Under the pieces are notes generated by a model. That model saw nothing but the letters and a program-made list of their open reading frames with translations. It was not told the origin of the DNA and did no database searches. Position numbers and translations under genes: made by a program. Positions 5,532 to 21,213 of a stretch of 61,169 nt of DNA are shown here, one piece after another (the stretch's first letter is position 1; every line of letters begins with the position of its first letter). The DNA is from Clostridia bacterium (GTDB lineage: Bacteria; Bacillota; Clostridia; TANB77; CAG-508), in the NCBI GenBank assembly GCA_017886645.1, contig JAGHJM010000099.1:1-61169 (forward strand), in the 5' to 3' direction.

Positions 5532-7770
5532 TCATTGTTCAATAAATTTTAATTCTAATATATGTCTTTGTATTAAAAGTGAGTCTATTGAAGATGGATT
5601 TTTTCCATCTTTATTTATATTACCTGCAGTTAAAAACACTCCGTTTAATTTTTCTATTTCTAGTATATGCCTTTGTAATACTAATAAATCAATACTGTTT
5701 ATTTTTCCATCTCCATTCACATCTCCATATATTACAATTTCAAACTTTATTTTTAATACATCATTATCTAGTATTTTTATTTTTGATCCTGTTCCTACTA
5801 TTTCATTTTCTGTTAATAATTTATCATCTTTGTTATATATCTCAATTGTATAAATAGTATTAATTTTTTCTTTTATATCATTTACAGTAAGTTCTTTTAT
5901 ATTCCATCCACTTATTTTATTTCCTTGTATCTTTAATGATTCATCAAAACTAATTTCATCTTCATTTATTTTTTCTATTACAGTTACATTTACTTCTTTT
6001 ATTATATTTGAATCTTCTGTAGTAATAATTATTTTAGCTTCTCCCTTTTCTAATGCTGTAATTTTCCCATTAGTATCTACTTTTAATATATTGCCATTGT
6101 CTGTCTTATATGTTACGTTTTTATTACTTGCATCTACTGGATATATTATTGGATTTAATATAAATTCTTCTCCAATTTGTAAAACCAAATTTTCTACATT
6201 TACTTCTAAATCTGTAACTTTAGTATATACCTGTATATCTATCTTACTAGATACATTGTTTTCTTTCGCTTTTACTGTTATTGTAACACTTCCAGATTTT
6301 ATTCCTAATACATTTCCGCACACTGTCTACTCTTGCAATTGTATTATCACTTGATGAAAATTCTACTTCATGATCTTTTGCTTCTTCTGGTAAGATTTCA
6401 ACATTTATTTTTTTAGTTTCGCCTTTGTTTATTACTGTATTATCTATACTAAGTTTTATCTCCTCTATTTGTTTTTCTGGCACTTCTTTTAAATAATTTT
6501 GAAATACATATCCTGTAATACCATTTTCTAATCTTACTTTATCCCATAATTCTCCTGATTGTTTTCCTTTTGCAATTCTAGTCATAATTTCATTTTTATC
6601 TACAGATGTTATTACTTCATATGATGTAGAAGGTCCAGTTCTAATGTTTAAAGTTGTTTGTACATCTGCATAAACTTTGGTATTATCTTTAGAAAAATCA
6701 CTTTCAAGTATATTTGGATTCTCCACCGCTTCTTCTGGCATATTATTATATACTGGAATAATAAAGTTCATACTTGTATTTAACATTCCCATATTATTAT
6801 ATCCATTATAGATTGATTTAGATTCACTATATGGAGCTAATACGTTTGTCATATATTGATGCCAAAATAATTCGCCACTATTATTATCTACCACGTGAAA
6901 TTTTTGAAGATAAACTGTATCTTGTCCTAAATTTATATAACTTGACCCAATAAAAATTCCTCCACCAGTTATTGCTCTTTCTTTTGTATTCCATGGAATT
7001 AAATATTTATTTTTTATTGTTTCACTTGCCCCATTACCATCTTTAGCATATTGAAGCCCTTTTCTTATTGCTCCCATAGGCTCTGACGAACTTGTTGCTC
7101 CTATATTATAAAAATTATATAATCCCTCATATCCACTTACAGTTCCTGATATGGATGCATGTGTTAAAAATGGTCCAACTTCTTGTTTTATTCTTGATGC
7201 TAAATGATATGTGCTTACTAATGACGTTTTTCCAGCTTGCAATATTAAATCAGAATATTTTTTATCCATAGTTATTGTACTGCCACTACTAGTTACATAT
7301 TGAACTGTGGTATTATAAAATTCTGTACCATATAATATTTTCTCTATCCCATCTTTTGTGTTTGTTTTTTCATCATATGAAAGACCTTCAAATTGAAAAA
7401 TTCTTACACTATTTAAAAAATTTCTCGGATCCATAGCATATTCTACTGCTATTCTAGAGGCATCTACCCATCCAGAATCAACTTCTACATTATATTCTCC
7501 TGGATTTGTATTTTTCCATCTATCTGAATAAGATTTTGGAACTAGGTTTACTCCAAATTTATTTTCATTATCTATTACATAATTCCAATCTAACCCTGTA
7601 TATAATGCTGTAAATTTCCAATTAGGAAATTTTTTTTGCAATTCTAATAAATATGGCTTATAGCTATCTGGAAAGTTTTCTATTCCTTCTTTTCTTTCTG
7701 TTGCCATACTTGTAATAGGAATTATAATTAAAAATAGCAGTATTATTAAAAATATCGTTTTCTTTTTCAT
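5532..7770 (-). pseudogene. GH73 N-acetylglucosaminidase-SH3b-Big_2-dockerin surface hydrolase, split by a 1-nt frameshift near 6316-6324
   Basis: ORFs 6247-7770 and 5532-6323 overlap, and together they read through a single Big_2 domain (..NTIARVDS / GNVLGIKSGSVTITVKA). The upstream part has a signal peptide, GH73-like YHLASRIKQE, YNFYNIGA and TVYLQKF, plus an SH3b domain. The downstream part ends in two dockerin repeats, DVNGDGKINSIDLLVLQRHIL and NINKDGKNPSSIDSLLIQRHIL. Confidence 0.7.
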
Positions 7771-10685: not shown

Positions 10686-10715
10686 TTTACTTTAGTTAAT
10701 TCTTATAAATTTCTA

Positions 10716-10745
10716 TTGACATTTACTAAAAAAATGTGCTACAAT
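10716..10745 (+). promoter_or_regulatory. sigma-A type promoter for tRNA-Leu
   Basis: TTGACA lies at 10716-10721, followed by an 18-nt spacer ending in TGc, then TACAAT at 10740-10745. The promoter is bracketed by the inverted repeat CTATTGACA / TGTCAATAG. Confidence 0.7.
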
Positions 10746-10766
10746 AATTGTTGTCAATAGAAATTT

Positions 10767-10850
10767 GCGGATGTGGCGAAACTGGCAGACGCGCTGGTCT
10801 TAGGAACCAGTGCCAACGGCGTGGAGGTTCGAGTCCTCTCATCCGCACCA
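10767..10850 (+). tRNA. tRNA-Leu, anticodon UAG
   Basis: I folded the cloverleaf by hand. The acceptor stem is GCGGATG/CATCCGC, the anticodon stem is CTGGT/ACCAG with loop CTTAGGA, there is a long variable arm, the T-arm is GGAGGTTCGAGTCCTCT, and CCA is encoded. Confidence 0.9.
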
Positions 10851-10992
10851 ATAATGTTTCTGTTCGAACGCCATCAAACAGAATTTATGCAAAATCAATC
10901 AGAAATAAGAATCTGGTTGATTTTTTGTTTACAAAAAGATTTCTTTTATTAGGTGTAGAACTAGTAAATTTATATCACAGAACATTTGAGTT
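10845..10992 (+). repeat. tRNA-flank module, copy A
   Basis: The module begins at GCACCAATAA. It then has the hairpin AATCAATCAGA..TCTGGTTGATTTTTT, followed by TTTCTTTTATTAGGT and CACAGAACATTTGAGTT. It is homologous to 11885-12023. Confidence 0.75.
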
Positions 10993-11143
10993 ATATTAGC
11001 ATGACACAACATATAAAAGACTCTTAGCATAAAGTTAAGAGTCTTTCATTATTTTATAACAATTATCGCCCCCAAAATTAATCCAAAAGCCGTAGTTTCA
11101 AGTAAATAAATTCAATTTTACATATATCCTTTATAATAGATAT

Positions 11144-11172
11144 GTTGTCAAAAATCCCCGTCCCAATTGACA
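11144..11172 (+). promoter_or_regulatory. 29-nt inverted-repeat motif, copy A
   Basis: The sequence is GTTGTCAAAAATCCCCGTCCCAATTGACA. It matches 12021-12049 at 27 of 29 positions and ends 31 nt before the -10 hexamer. Confidence 0.6.
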
Positions 11173-11180
11173 TATATAAT

Positions 11181-11209
11181 TTGCAATTTTATGTAAAATG
11201 TGTTATAAT
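11181..11209 (+). promoter_or_regulatory. sigma-A promoter with extended -10 for the 138-aa ORF
   Basis: TTGCAA is followed by a 17-nt spacer ending in TGt, then TATAAT. Confidence 0.7.
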
Positions 11210-11292
11210 TGTAGTGATGAAGAGTTTTGGCTCTGTTTCATCAGTAGTAAATAAACCACAAAGAACGCGTTATTACGCAAGGAGGAAAAATT

Positions 11293-11709
11293 ATGGCAAA
11301 ATACGAAGACGAAGGTTATTGTCCGTGTCAGTGGCTTGAGTTTACTGCCGATAATCGCTTGGCGGGTCTGTGGAGCTTGATCGGTTACAGTGTGGTGTAT
11401 GAGAAGGAAGATGCAGTAAAATGCACTCCTGACACCGCTACTTGCGACAAGGCTTTCAGCTCCGATCCTATCGCTTACGATGTGCTTTCCGCCATCGTTA
11501 AGAGGAATGTGAACGCTGATAAAATTCTCGTACATCAGCTTCACAATGGCGCTGTCAATACGCAACGTATCTCTGACATTCAGAAGACCTTGGCAGAAGC
11601 AACCAATCCGCAGCTGATTGCACATGCAAAAAGCAACTTCATTGTCATCATCGCCGATGCTTCTTATGGCATTGATGTGTGGGTCTGGGATCTCTCAAGC
11701 TGCTATTAA
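11293..11709 (+). CDS. hypothetical protein, compositionally foreign
   Basis: AGGAGG lies 7 nt before the ATG, and a clean terminator follows the stop. GC is about 44-50% in hand-counted lines, against about 20-28% in the flanks. I did not recognise a family. Confidence 0.65.
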   Translation: MAKYEDEGYCPCQWLEFTADNRLAGLWSLIGYSVVYEKEDAVKCTPDTATCDKAFSSDPIAYDVLSAIVKRNVNADKILVHQLHNGAVNTQRISDIQKTLAEATNPQLIAHAKSNFIVIIADASYGIDVWVWDLSSCY

Positions 11710-11736
11710 GCCATAACTAAAAAAACGAATTGTTTT

Positions 11737-11765
11737 CTGCACTCGAAATGGGTGCAGTTTTTTTT
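11737..11765 (+). terminator. rho-independent terminator
   Basis: The stem-loop CTGCAC-tcgaaatgg-GTGCAG is followed by T8. Confidence 0.8.
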
Positions 11766-11884
11766 GAAATTTTTATTAAATTTATTGTATCTTATAAAAA
11801 ATATGATATATTTTAGTAGATTGATTGATATTTGTATTCAATCATTATGAGAGTCAAAAAAGCTTGTAGATAATTACTTTGATG

Positions 11885-12023
11885 GCACCAATAAATGATC
11901 TATTCAAACTAATTGAATGCTAAGAAACAAAAATCAATCAGAAGTGGTTGATTTTTTTGTTTGAAAAAAATTTCTTTTATTAGGTATGAAACTATTAAAT
12001 TTGTCTCACAGTACACCTGAGTT
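11885..12023 (+). repeat. tRNA-flank module, copy B
   Basis: It starts with GCACCAATAA, which is identical to the tRNA 3' end plus flank. It then has AATCAATCAGAAGTGGTTGATTTTTTT, TTTCTTTTATTAGGT and CACAGTACACCTGAGTT. Confidence 0.75.
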
Positions 12024-12049
12024 GTCAAAAATCTCCGTCCCGATTGACA
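12021..12049 (+). promoter_or_regulatory. 29-nt inverted-repeat motif, copy B
   Basis: The sequence is GTTGTCAAAAATCTCCGTCCCGATTGACA. It ends 31 nt before TGgTATTAT (12078-12086). Confidence 0.6.
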
Positions 12050-12137
12050 CAAAAGTATTTATCTTTTTATTAAAATATGGTATTATCTTCTGTGCAGGCA
12101 AAATTTATTTTAGTGCATAGTTGTATAGGAGGTTTTT

Positions 12138-12764
12138 ATGCAAAAAATAATTTTCGGTACTACAAATAGACGGAAAATCGAAGACTTAAATGAAATAATA
12201 AAGCACTGTCATTTTCCCGCCAAGATTCTCACATTACAAGATATTGGTTGGGATTTAGGAGAAATTGAAGAAGCTGGTCGCTCACTTTCAGAAAATTCTT
12301 TAATCAAAGCTCATGCTATTCGCAACTTTTGTCTATCCCACCATCTTTCGTATCCAATAATTACTGATGATTCTGGGCTTTTTGTTCACAGCCTTAATGG
12401 AAAACCTGGAATCCGTACCGCAAGATATGCCGACGAAGAATTGTCTACTAACCCAAGCCTTCCTAAGTATGAATGCGTAAATAAGCTGTTAAGAAATTTG
12501 AAAGATGCCTCCAATAGGGATGCAACTTATAAGTGCGTTGTAACATGTATCCGCCAAAGTGGTACATATTTCCAAGTTTCGAGCAGAAGTCAAGGAAAAA
12601 TCGCAAACGAGATTGTTGAACCAATTCAAAAGCCGTATTTTTATTCAGTATTCATTTTAGACTCTGCACAAAAAACTTTTAACCAATTGTCCAAGGAGGA
12701 ACTAAAAGAAACTTATAGGTATAAAGCATTAGAAAGAACTCTAGAAGTACTTTTTCATATGTAA
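12138..12764 (+). CDS. divergent Ham1/RdgB-family non-canonical NTP pyrophosphatase
   Basis: It carries FGTTNRRKIED, ITDDSGLFVHSLNGKPGIRTARYA and ENSLIKA. The usual C-terminal FGYDP and SHR motifs are replaced by PYFYSVF and YRYKA. An AGGAGG precedes the ATG. Confidence 0.75.
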   Translation: MQKIIFGTTNRRKIEDLNEIIKHCHFPAKILTLQDIGWDLGEIEEAGRSLSENSLIKAHAIRNFCLSHHLSYPIITDDSGLFVHSLNGKPGIRTARYADEELSTNPSLPKYECVNKLLRNLKDASNRDATYKCVVTCIRQSGTYFQVSSRSQGKIANEIVEPIQKPYFYSVFILDSAQKTFNQLSKEELKETYRYKALERTLEVLFHM

Positions 12765-12874
12765 ACCTATTTTTTCCAAAGTTTCCCCAAATATTAAATC
12801 TTATACAGAGTATAATATCTTATATTTATCTTGCACTAAGGGACGTTGGCATTTATTGCCACGCCCCTATTTTA

Positions 12875-20934: not shown

Positions 20935-21213
20935 TTACATGTCCACATAGTACCCGGAATTCTTGTTAGTCTCCCGGTTGTATCTGCATTTTGGGCTTGT
21001 CACCCCCCGACACCCAACGCACATTGTGCCAGTACAAAACTGGTGGAACTCGCCATTGTAAACGGTGCCATATAGTGCCAAAACGGTCTTGCCAGGGGTA
21101 TCTGTGAGCTCGACCTCGAAAAAGCCATTTCCGGCTCTTCCTTCTTTTCCAATGCAGACTCCGGTCTCTTCGAGAACGACGTTCCCAAATGAAGACAATA
21201 CTCTCTTATACAT
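20935..21213 (-). CDS. hypothetical Cys-rich small protein (92 aa), compositionally foreign
   Basis: GGAGG lies 8 nt before the ATG at 21213 (MYKRVLSS..), so the track's upstream extension is probably not translated. One hand-counted line gives about 55% GC. It has its own promoter and terminator. Confidence 0.55.
   Translation of the reverse strand: MYKRVLSSFGNVVLEETGVCIGKEGRAGNGFFEVELTDTPGKTVLALYGTVYNGEFHQFCTGTMCVGCRGVTSPKCRYNRETNKNSGYYVDM

Follow-up and report, generated by a model that had tools for sequence, protein, structure and literature searches.

A probable accretion scar of serine-recombinase mobilizable elements behind a tRNA-Leu(UAG) gene of a gut Clostridia bacterium

The stretch of DNA analysed here, called the window, is a chromosome segment of 61,169 nt from an uncultured gut Clostridia bacterium (contig JAGHJM010000099.1). 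Its GC content is 26.9%, its genes average 27.2% GC (standard deviation 3.9), and they are housekeeping genes, including those for IleRS, PolA, TGT, QueA and CTP synthase. At about 11 kb, a tRNA-Leu(UAG) gene is followed by a non-coding module, a 29-nt inverted-repeat motif, an open reading frame (ORF) of 138 codons (ORF1), a second module with a second copy of the motif, and a gene for a Ham1-family nucleoside triphosphate (NTP) pyrophosphatase (Table 1). A first-pass annotation, made from the sequence alone, had described two single-gene cassettes stacked at the tRNA by tandem accretion, or else a cassette array with a reusable leader. The locus is read here as the probable accretion scar of a family of integrative mobilizable elements (IMEs) of gut Clostridia, consisting of a mini-element (unit 1) and the worn left end of an older element (module 2). 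The tRNA gene is the integration target, and its CCA at 10848-10850 is the junction.

Table 1. Annotated features at the tRNA-Leu(UAG) locus, in window coordinates
Feature	Position	Strand	Basis
tRNA-Leu(UAG)	10767-10850	+	ARAGORN; Rfam tRNA, 56.5 bits
Unit 1, 1040-bp recombinase-less derivative of a serine-recombinase IME	10851-11890	+	BLAST to full IMEs and to ORF1 units of other species; element ends
Left-end module of unit 1	10851-10935	+	Fold z = -3.6; terminator scan; junction consensus; mirror symmetry with the tRNA T-loop
mob-upstream remnant, ~80 nt (..CCTCGCAGAGC..GAGTT and inverted repeat)	10936-11015	+	Alignment with L128, L031, L009, L155 and L120
Terminator-like hairpin within the stretch present in copy 1 only (~130 nt unique)	11016-11046	+	Terminator scan
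29-nt inverted-repeat motif, copy 1 (GTTGTCAAAAATCCCCGTCCCAATTGACA)	11144-11172	+	Motif count; partial copy upstream of ORF1 in L022
Cargo-cassette promoter (TTGCAA-17-TATAAT, extended -10 with upstream TG) and 5' untranslated region (UTR)	11181-11292	+	Promoter scan
ORF1, 138 aa	11293-11709	+	58 homologues; AlphaFold2 pLDDT (predicted local distance difference test) 83.8
Intrinsic terminator of ORF1	11737-11757	+	Terminator scan
IME right end, ~125 nt, ending GGCACCA	11767-11890	+	BLAST; right-end catalogue
Module 2, putative older, diverged left end	11891-12023	+	Module alignments; folding; mob-upstream alignment
29-nt motif, copy 2	12021-12049	+	Motif count; second copy 1.2 kb upstream in sister strains, bracketing an inverted MYG1 cassette
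Ham1-family NTP pyrophosphatase (ORF2)	12138-12764	+	Pfam; 35.6% GC; homologue contexts
GC-rich hairpin between the convergent Ham1 and FAD-oxidoreductase/Rieske genes, likely a bidirectional terminator	12840-12867		Sequence; fold

The repeats reported by the first-pass annotation were confirmed. The 10-nt tRNA-end sequence GCACCAATAA occurs twice in the 61 kb, at 10845 and 11885, where 0.08 copies were expected and none of 100 dinucleotide shuffles held two or more. The modules that follow, 10845-10992 and 11885-12023, are about 80% alike over ~140 nt (76% between 10845-10869 and 11885-11909, 82% between 10914-10992 and 11945-12023), share an identical terminator-hairpin seed, AAAATCAATCAGAA, and have no third copy in the window. 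Exactly two copies of the 29-nt motif were found, against an expectation of 0.00. The layout behind the modules, claimed to be the same, is so only in part: the motif follows both, but copy 1 alone has 151 additional nt (10993-11143) between module and motif, and similarity of the two "promoters" past the motif is only ~57%, a level close to background in AT-rich DNA. In the sister contigs inspected (e.g. L001), CCAATGACG follows the tRNA and the repeat shrinks to the 8 nt GCACCAAT; the 10-nt repeat is partly strain-specific. After the CCA, the window reads ATAATG (10851-10855 region) and L001 reads ATGACG (5559-5563); these two changes, possibly the outcome of gene conversion from module 2, produce the exact 10-nt repeat with that module. 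The promoter of the tRNA gene (10707-10766) was also seen to lie inside a perfect 15-nt inverted repeat, AAATTTCTATTGACA ..30 nt.. TGTCAATAGAAATTT, with the -35 box within the left arm, and a comparable palindrome surrounds the promoter of the same tRNA in another species (L062 1515-1562).

Viral and metagenome collections were scanned with CCA joined to the opening 19 nt of the module, yielding at least 120 contigs in the metagenome scan; further loci were obtained via the ORF1 protein, independently of the DNA pattern (loci are cited below by L numbers). Among the matches listed, 135 non-redundant module junctions were collected, and the module begins exactly where the CCA ends, behind at least 17 tRNA species as well as transfer-messenger RNA (tmRNA). 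ARAGORN-called tRNAs of 17 anticodon species, including four for Leu, three for Gly, two each for Arg and Thr, and those for Tyr, Met, Phe and Lys, precede 81 of the 135; 5 others follow tmRNA and 14 follow partial tRNA ends. In 40 of the 135, the module is preceded not by a tRNA but by the right end of another element or by a short remnant with a CCA end, and arrays at tRNA ends are common. The same junction was found in loci fetched with ORF1, behind tRNA-Leu(CAA) in L009, tRNA-Thr(CGU) in L017 and tmRNA in L025. Modules scattered away from tRNAs, which the first-pass annotation had named as an outcome that would count against it, were not found.

Downstream of the module lie the genes of a mobile element. 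Among the matches listed, 72 junctions had at least 2.5 kb of downstream sequence; a 93-aa gene (p93) and a large serine recombinase (LSR) were present in 28 of them and fragments of IME genes in 21 more. The usual order 3' of the module is p93, an LSR of ~640 aa (642-661), a Mob_Pre relaxase and TnpV, and Pfam analysis of full elements identified Resolvase and Recombinase domains (642 aa), Mob_Pre and TnpV. A recombinase co-occurring with the module, which the first-pass annotation had proposed to look for, is thus this LSR. Its catalytic domain matches the TP901-1 integrase at 1e-21, and the LSR resembles TnpX remotely (E = 4e-6 over 86 residues); a plasmid search with the LSR gave only matches below 30% identity. 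At 90% identity, the p93 cluster has 766 members. These data show the full element to be an IME of ~5.5 kb, placed right after the 3'-CCA, that has the same gene repertoire as Tn4451-family elements and also carries a small cassette with an accessory gene.

Complete elements with both ends were found in L128 (5552 bp), L099, L148, L120 and L053. On the left they read NCCA/ATGACGTATCTGTTCGAAC (the slash marks the junction), followed by hairpin and terminator; on the right they read ..ATTGATTGATATTTGTATCAATCGT..GTTGTAGATAACTACnnnnnnGGCACCA/flank, followed by the native terminator, another unit or the next module. Left and right junctions have only 5-7 nt in common. LSRs at least 95% identical to each other occur at tRNA-Lys(CUU), tRNA-Arg(ACG) and a Leu(CAA)-type end, and a second such set occurs at tRNA-Leu(UAG), tRNA-Arg(ACG) and a Leu(UAA)-type end; one recombinase thus appears to serve several tRNA targets. 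Elements at tRNA-Gly have right ends reading ..GCTCCA, in agreement with U73 (judged by eye in L047 and L133).

Two further observations concern neighbouring elements. Other serine-recombinase families (recombinases 30-50% identical), with right ends such as ..TTTTTCGCATACGTGTATAGTTAAGGCTCCA, lie between the tRNA and the module of the reference family in L048, L097, L115, L164, L058, L131, L011-L016, L107, L108 and L101, so that tandems at tRNA ends can be of mixed families. A unit of ~165 nt was also seen between an element right end (or the tRNA) and the next module (L009 6598-6762, L128 12531-12698, L155 ~270-440; also L061, L124 and L167). It is made up of a terminator, GGGAYTCGAAAAGGAGG, a stretch with CCGACGCGGCTYG at its end and 14-21 nt identical to the 3' end of the local tRNA. 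Its 5' part resembles the 5' strand of the T-stem and co-varies with the resident tRNA, as in a partial tRNA copy with its T-loop split by an insert of ~110 nt. Another element family, one with crossover in the T-loop, may have left this unit as its attR scar. Crossover in the T-loop as a general mechanism, considered on account of the 14-21-nt tRNA copies in L128, L009 and L155, was rejected for the main family, because the right ends in L099, L148, L120 and L053 abut native flank with only NCCA in common, and because attL (..CCACCA) and attR (..GTACCA) of L130 differ left of ACCA.

Unit 1 has the ends of such an element. Its left-end module consists of a hairpin, TTCTGTT..AACAGAA, bearing the palindromic box GTTCGAAC (10862-10869), and a terminator hairpin at 10891-10924; its right end contains ATTGATTGATATTTGTAT and GTAGATAATTAC..GATGGCACCA. 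By BLAST, window 10823-10937 is 78% identical to the left end of the element in L128 and 11768-11891 is 79% identical to its right end, and the window right end is 76-86% identical to more than 20 other IME right ends. Positions 10960-11015 can be aligned to the DNA that precedes mob in full IMEs. A MOBV origin of transfer (oriT) usually lies in the non-coding DNA just upstream of mob, and 10936-11015 is, judging by the alignment, a candidate degenerate oriT region. For the stretch present in copy 1 only (10993-11143), BLAST found no homologue outside the species. ORF1 is the only gene inside unit 1, and no homologue of p93, LSR, mob or tnpV was found by tblastn anywhere in the window. Since unit 1 keeps the left end, the mob-upstream stretch, the 29-nt motif, the cassette and the right end, it is a deletion derivative that has lost p93, recombinase, mob and tnpV; homology thus shows it to be an IME after internal deletion, a decayed mini-element resembling a cis-mobilizable element (CIME). 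Within its right end, an apparent outward-facing extended -10 promoter (TTGCAA-N16-TGnTATACT, ~11786-11815), similar to the cargo promoter, was recognized by eye and was not called by the automated scan. In a circular form, it would read over the joint into the left end, and it recalls the joint promoter reported for Tn4451.

In line with the first-pass annotation, no recombinase or transposase was found in the window: tblastn with the IME proteins gave no match, and Pfam analysis of the seven genes flanking the locus and of ORFs of at least 110 aa from 17.9 to 61 kb returned non-mobile functions only, with several large ORFs unmatched. Genes at 0.5-8.4 and 15.3-17.9 kb were assessed via the precomputed Pfam labels of a same-species contig, L172.

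ORF1 stands out from its surroundings at 47.0% GC, which bears out its earlier description as compositionally foreign. It belongs to a real, conserved family and is predicted with confidence by AlphaFold2; it has no Pfam, PHROG or PADLOC family, Foldseek of the model against PDB and BFVD gave nothing below E = 0.05, and a profile search of PDB sequences returned only noise. Its homologues occupy unrelated neighbourhoods and repeatedly lie just 3' of tRNA-type genes: tRNA-Leu(UAG) in the window, tRNA-Leu(CAA) in L009, tRNA-Thr(CGU) in L017, tRNA-Leu(GAG) in L018, tRNA-Leu(UAA) in L023, tmRNA in L025 and a CCA-ended remnant in L011-L016. From the ORF1 promoter through ..GGCACCA, window and L009 are 89% identical over 713 nt, in an unrelated neighbourhood with nothing else matching between the loci, and the unit of L018 is 85% identical to that of the window. 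The units of the window and L009 also share the architecture from left end to mob-upstream region, behind different tRNAs of different species. The ORF1 unit therefore appears, by sequence comparison, to have moved between species.

The cargo promoter and its conserved 5' UTR (hairpin GATGAA..TTCATC, ACGCGTTATTACGC, AGGAGG) also precede unrelated GC-rich ORFs in other IMEs, so that different cargo in the same frame, proposed earlier as a check, does exist, as does the ORF1 unit behind other tRNAs in other species. One ORF family of 128-130 aa, starting MAK(I/K)VRYNG, follows this promoter and UTR in L148 (10900-11420), L096 (11880-12380) and L099 (9200-9700, reverse complement), and a related cassette with a 169-aa ORF lies in inverted orientation in L120 (5138-5760). 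An accessory cassette is a standard feature of the right end in this IME family, and the unrelated ORFs suggest a swappable slot at that end. Other recombinase-less derivatives (L009, L053) carry a 603-aa nucleotidyltransferase-like protein and PemK. ORF1 itself is predicted to be expressed on its own as an accessory gene.

Module 2 directly abuts the right end of unit 1. Hairpin and terminator are kept, with a compensatory change in hairpin 1 between the two window copies, and the box GTTCGAAC is degraded to ATTCAAAC. Because it is more degenerate and distal to the tRNA, as an earlier insertion would be, module 2 is inferred to be the older of the two, a degenerate left end pushed outward by unit 1. 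The notion of a reusable leader is not upheld by these comparisons, in which the module is an element left end made up of att half-site, terminator and mob-upstream remnant.

ORF2 was correctly named by the first-pass annotation: it matches Pfam PF01725 (Ham1p_like) at E = 6.7e-32 (111.3 bits, above the gathering score) over positions 1-183 of the 186-position profile. The gene has a raised GC content (z = +2.2), and homologues at 62-68% identity are non-syntenic, being found in a uvrB operon, beside a second Ham1 paralogue and in an island with LSR, RhuM and DndB. This GC content and these contexts are compatible with acquired cargo and do not prove it; Ham1 is either the surviving cargo of the earlier element or a native gene. 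The subfamily of 208-210 aa was seen as a paralogue alongside a canonical 199-aa Ham1 gene (L180 2746-4630), after uvrB (L185 451-3039), and in an island with serine recombinase, RhuM, HNH and DndB (L182 1-6243). Past Ham1, neither a right end nor a second right-end core was found anywhere in the window. A candidate right end at 12792 (25/33 nt similar) was rejected, two other matches of 24/33 being present in the window. As unit 2 consists of a degraded left end with no detectable right end, Ham1 is not established as the cargo of a second mini-element. The tandem accretion claimed at the tRNA att site accordingly stands as an insertion-built tandem in which unit 1 has both ends, and not as two entire units. 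Similarly, each unit has its single ORF, but the predicted promoter and terminators (10891-10924, 11737-11757) were called by the scans in unit 1 only; for Ham1, the extended -10 was seen by eye and the terminator hairpin by folding.

The 29-nt motif has inverted arms, TTGTCAA-N15-TTGACA. Its single window copy between module 2 and Ham1 (12021-12049) corresponds, in 15 of the 24 same-species contigs, to two copies with an inverted 1214-bp cassette between them, holding a cargo-type promoter, a MYG1-family (UPF0160) gene at 42% GC and a terminator (e.g. L173 8771-10010; also L179). The closest MYG1 homologues outside the species are ~70% identical, so that the boundaries of the cassette cannot be traced there. 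A partial motif lies upstream of ORF1 in L022, and a variant in the peroxiredoxin promoter region of L120. The motif could serve as a second recombination site or as an operator, or it could be a short repeat through which deletions arise.

The alternative that survives best, though we regard it as unlikely, builds on this motif: a recombinase acting on GTTGTCAAAAATCYCCGTCCCRATTGACA would insert and delete promoter-ORF-terminator cassettes, in the manner of integron attC or Xer-dependent pdif-like sites, and the tRNA-end repeats would be secondary. The MYG1 polymorphism, an inverted repeat of the size of a recombination site, the partial motif ahead of ORF1 in another species and the occurrence of the cargo cassette in both orientations among related elements (e.g. 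L120) agree with such an array. The full motif, however, was seen only in the window species, apart from the one L120 variant in an ordinary promoter region; no recombinase matching it was found; and other ORF1 units do without it. The outer boundaries of unit 1 are IME ends and not copies of the motif, and homologous recombination between two short repeats would yield the same MYG1 polymorphism.

Two other explanations are given little credence. Remnants of classical tyrosine-integrase islands or prophages would suit tRNA-Leu(UAG), which is a prophage hotspot, and a 52-nt partial tRNA copy adjoins the module in viral contigs L029, L033 and L037; yet the window repeats only 6-10 nt of the tRNA end, where such an island would have >15 nt duplicated, no tyrosine integrase or fragment of one was found in it, and the ends match those of the LSR element. 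About equally improbable is a module kept for its function as a structured tRNA trailer or small RNA (e.g. Rfam Fusobacteriales-1), with the mobile genes incidental to it. The module of L009 scores 32.8 bits against RF02920 (Fusobacteriales-1), below the gathering score of 52.1, and both window copies form two hairpins with the compensatory change mentioned above. But the module travels together with IME genes and right end and occurs behind many unrelated tRNAs at ~80-90% identity across species, and the window modules are unmatched in Rfam even at E <= 10 (only the tRNA was found over the window at E <= 1, and only noise over 10840-12060 at E <= 10); no mention of Fusobacteriales-1 was found in the literature searched. 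Least credible of all is local tandem duplication of tRNA trailer and promoter with later divergence and gene replacement and no mobile element. The two copies are indeed collinear from GCACCA via the module to the 29-nt motif, but the ends and cargo of unit 1 have counterparts of 78-89% identity in unrelated genomes, behind other tRNAs and at the ends of recombinase-bearing elements, and ORF1 is compositionally foreign.

For the accretion scar of an IME family, the junction consensus suggests how arrays could form. The T-loop box GTTCGA (-24 to -19) and GTTCGAAC (+12 to +19) are mirror images about C74. Strand exchange would take place inside the terminal NCCA, and the LSR would read the universal T-loop box ~17-22 bp left of the exchange point. 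The left end of the element would place the palindrome GTTCGAAC at the mirror position of that box, and exchange in NCCA, reading of the T-loop and the mirrored palindrome would together cause each insertion to recreate a symmetrical attB-like junction beside the tRNA. The next element would enter at this junction, pushing older ones outward. Unit 1 would be movable only with a helper, like a CIME, and its circular joint would read ..GATGGCACCA/ATGACGTTTCTG.. (slash at the joint). In its broadest form, the hypothesis is that an LSR lineage recognizes the T-loop GTTCGA and NCCA common to all tRNA and tmRNA genes, that the mirror box drives the arrays, and that mini-elements of ~1 kb (two ends, perhaps an oriT and a swappable cassette) use the LSR in trans and spread GC-rich accessory genes. 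This is offered tentatively, with confidence falling slightly short of even. Recognition of features shared by all tRNAs and tmRNAs would let one element land behind almost any tRNA.

Several points weigh against reading the locus as the accretion scar of an IME family. The link between LSR and ends is an association only, and neither excision nor integration was observed. Conservation of CCA and box in the scanned loci is partly by construction, as the scan pattern contained both; loci obtained via ORF1 nevertheless have these features too. An empty tRNA-Leu site, which the first-pass annotation had proposed to look for in relatives, was found in none of the 24 same-species contigs read; all carry ORF1 and unit 1, the polymorphism seen being presence or absence of the MYG1 cassette, and mobility in the window species would therefore be historical. 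A search for a helper IME found none in the 61-kb window, which covers only part of the genome, and L062, L078 and L085, considered as evidence of a helper in the same species, were rejected on matching the window in the tRNA region only. Internal deletion junctions differ between species, and decay in place, rather than movement as mini-elements, may account for many ORF1 units. L128 and L009 have the extra ~165 nt and 14-21 nt of local tRNA 3' end beyond GGCACCA, a piece that could reflect T-loop crossover for at least some insertions. Finally, the B' side of the target, that is, the native trailer, is unconserved, which is unusual for the attB of an LSR.

Elsewhere in the window, a second small ORF of foreign composition was observed at 20935-21213 on the - strand; it encodes 92 aa at 44.8% GC and is equipped with a promoter and a terminator of its own. 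It sits just 3' of a gene with a translation that looks thioredoxin-like by eye, and it has no Pfam match and neither module nor 29-nt motif close by.

For annotation, the ~100-nt conserved "tRNA trailers" seen in gut Clostridia would be scars of an IME family that is very common, and the orphan GC-rich genes that follow such trailers would be its cargo. By the conserved promoter and 5' UTR, which frame interchangeable small ORFs, a pool of mobile accessory proteins can be recognized and collected systematically. If it holds true, generic targeting of tRNA ends with a self-regenerated landing site would be a new targeting logic for a serine recombinase, and the LSR could serve as a multi-site integration tool with sequence-predictable targets in low-GC Firmicutes.

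Among known systems, the Ccr serine recombinases of SCCmec and pseudo-SCC elements insert repeatedly at the 3' end of rlmH, and in the resulting arrays recombinase-less units are bounded by repeated att cores; they differ from the present family in target gene, in belonging to an unrelated recombinase family and in units of tens of kb. Integron cassettes and the pdif modules of Acinetobacter are single-gene units bracketed by a short inverted-repeat site and show presence/absence polymorphism, a likeness that concerns the 29-nt motif only; here neither an IntI integrase nor an Xer-type site architecture came to light, the window cassettes carry their own promoters, unlike the promoterless, attC-ended cassettes of integrons, and the motif was seen essentially in one species. 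Tn4451 and Tn4453 of Clostridium (TnpX, TnpZ, TnpV) resemble the full relatives of unit 1 in having an LSR, Mob_Pre and TnpV, a size of ~5-6 kb and very short direct repeats. The 2-bp identity of Tn4451 is GA, whereas the ends described here share NCCA and the targets are specific to tRNA and tmRNA 3' ends; moreover, the LSR is remote from TnpX and closer to the TP901-1 integrase, catP is absent and a small-ORF cassette makes up the cargo. According to PMC5704250, target specificity in Tn4451 is low and exchange takes place at a 2-bp identity. The window locus itself has the L128-like ends and the repeat GCACCA(ATAA) but neither LSR nor Mob_Pre relaxase, making it a derivative of such IMEs and not a member.

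For integrative conjugative elements (ICEs) and IMEs it is established that they can decay to gene-poor, att-bearing CIMEs and can accrete in tandem at the 3' end of a target gene (PMC5704250). Unit 1 agrees with a CIME in its gene content (ORF1 only) and in having both attL and attR, with a left junction bearing intact GTTCGAAC and a right end complete to GGCACCA. As in ICESt1/ICESt3 of Streptococcus thermophilus (PMC5704250), it lies in tandem with a related remnant at the target 3' end, the newest nearest the target; those elements use a tyrosine integrase, whereas here an LSR, a 5-10-nt repeat and the tRNA CCA end are involved, and helper-dependent movement would hold by analogy. In the tycheposons of Prochlorococcus, successive integrations at one tRNA likewise push older ones outward, and remnants and partial tRNA ends accumulate; they differ in nearly always using tyrosine recombinases, in their longer partial tRNA repeats and in an integrase tied to a particular tRNA (bioRxiv 10.1101/2020.12.28.424599). 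Known serine-recombinase IMEs integrate inside genes or, like Tn4451, with low specificity (PMC5704250), and in the literature searched no family was found whose serine recombinase targets CCA ends across many tRNAs and tmRNA. Tandem accretion of decayed elements is thus already known, while the targeting of generic tRNA ends by a serine recombinase appears to be new.

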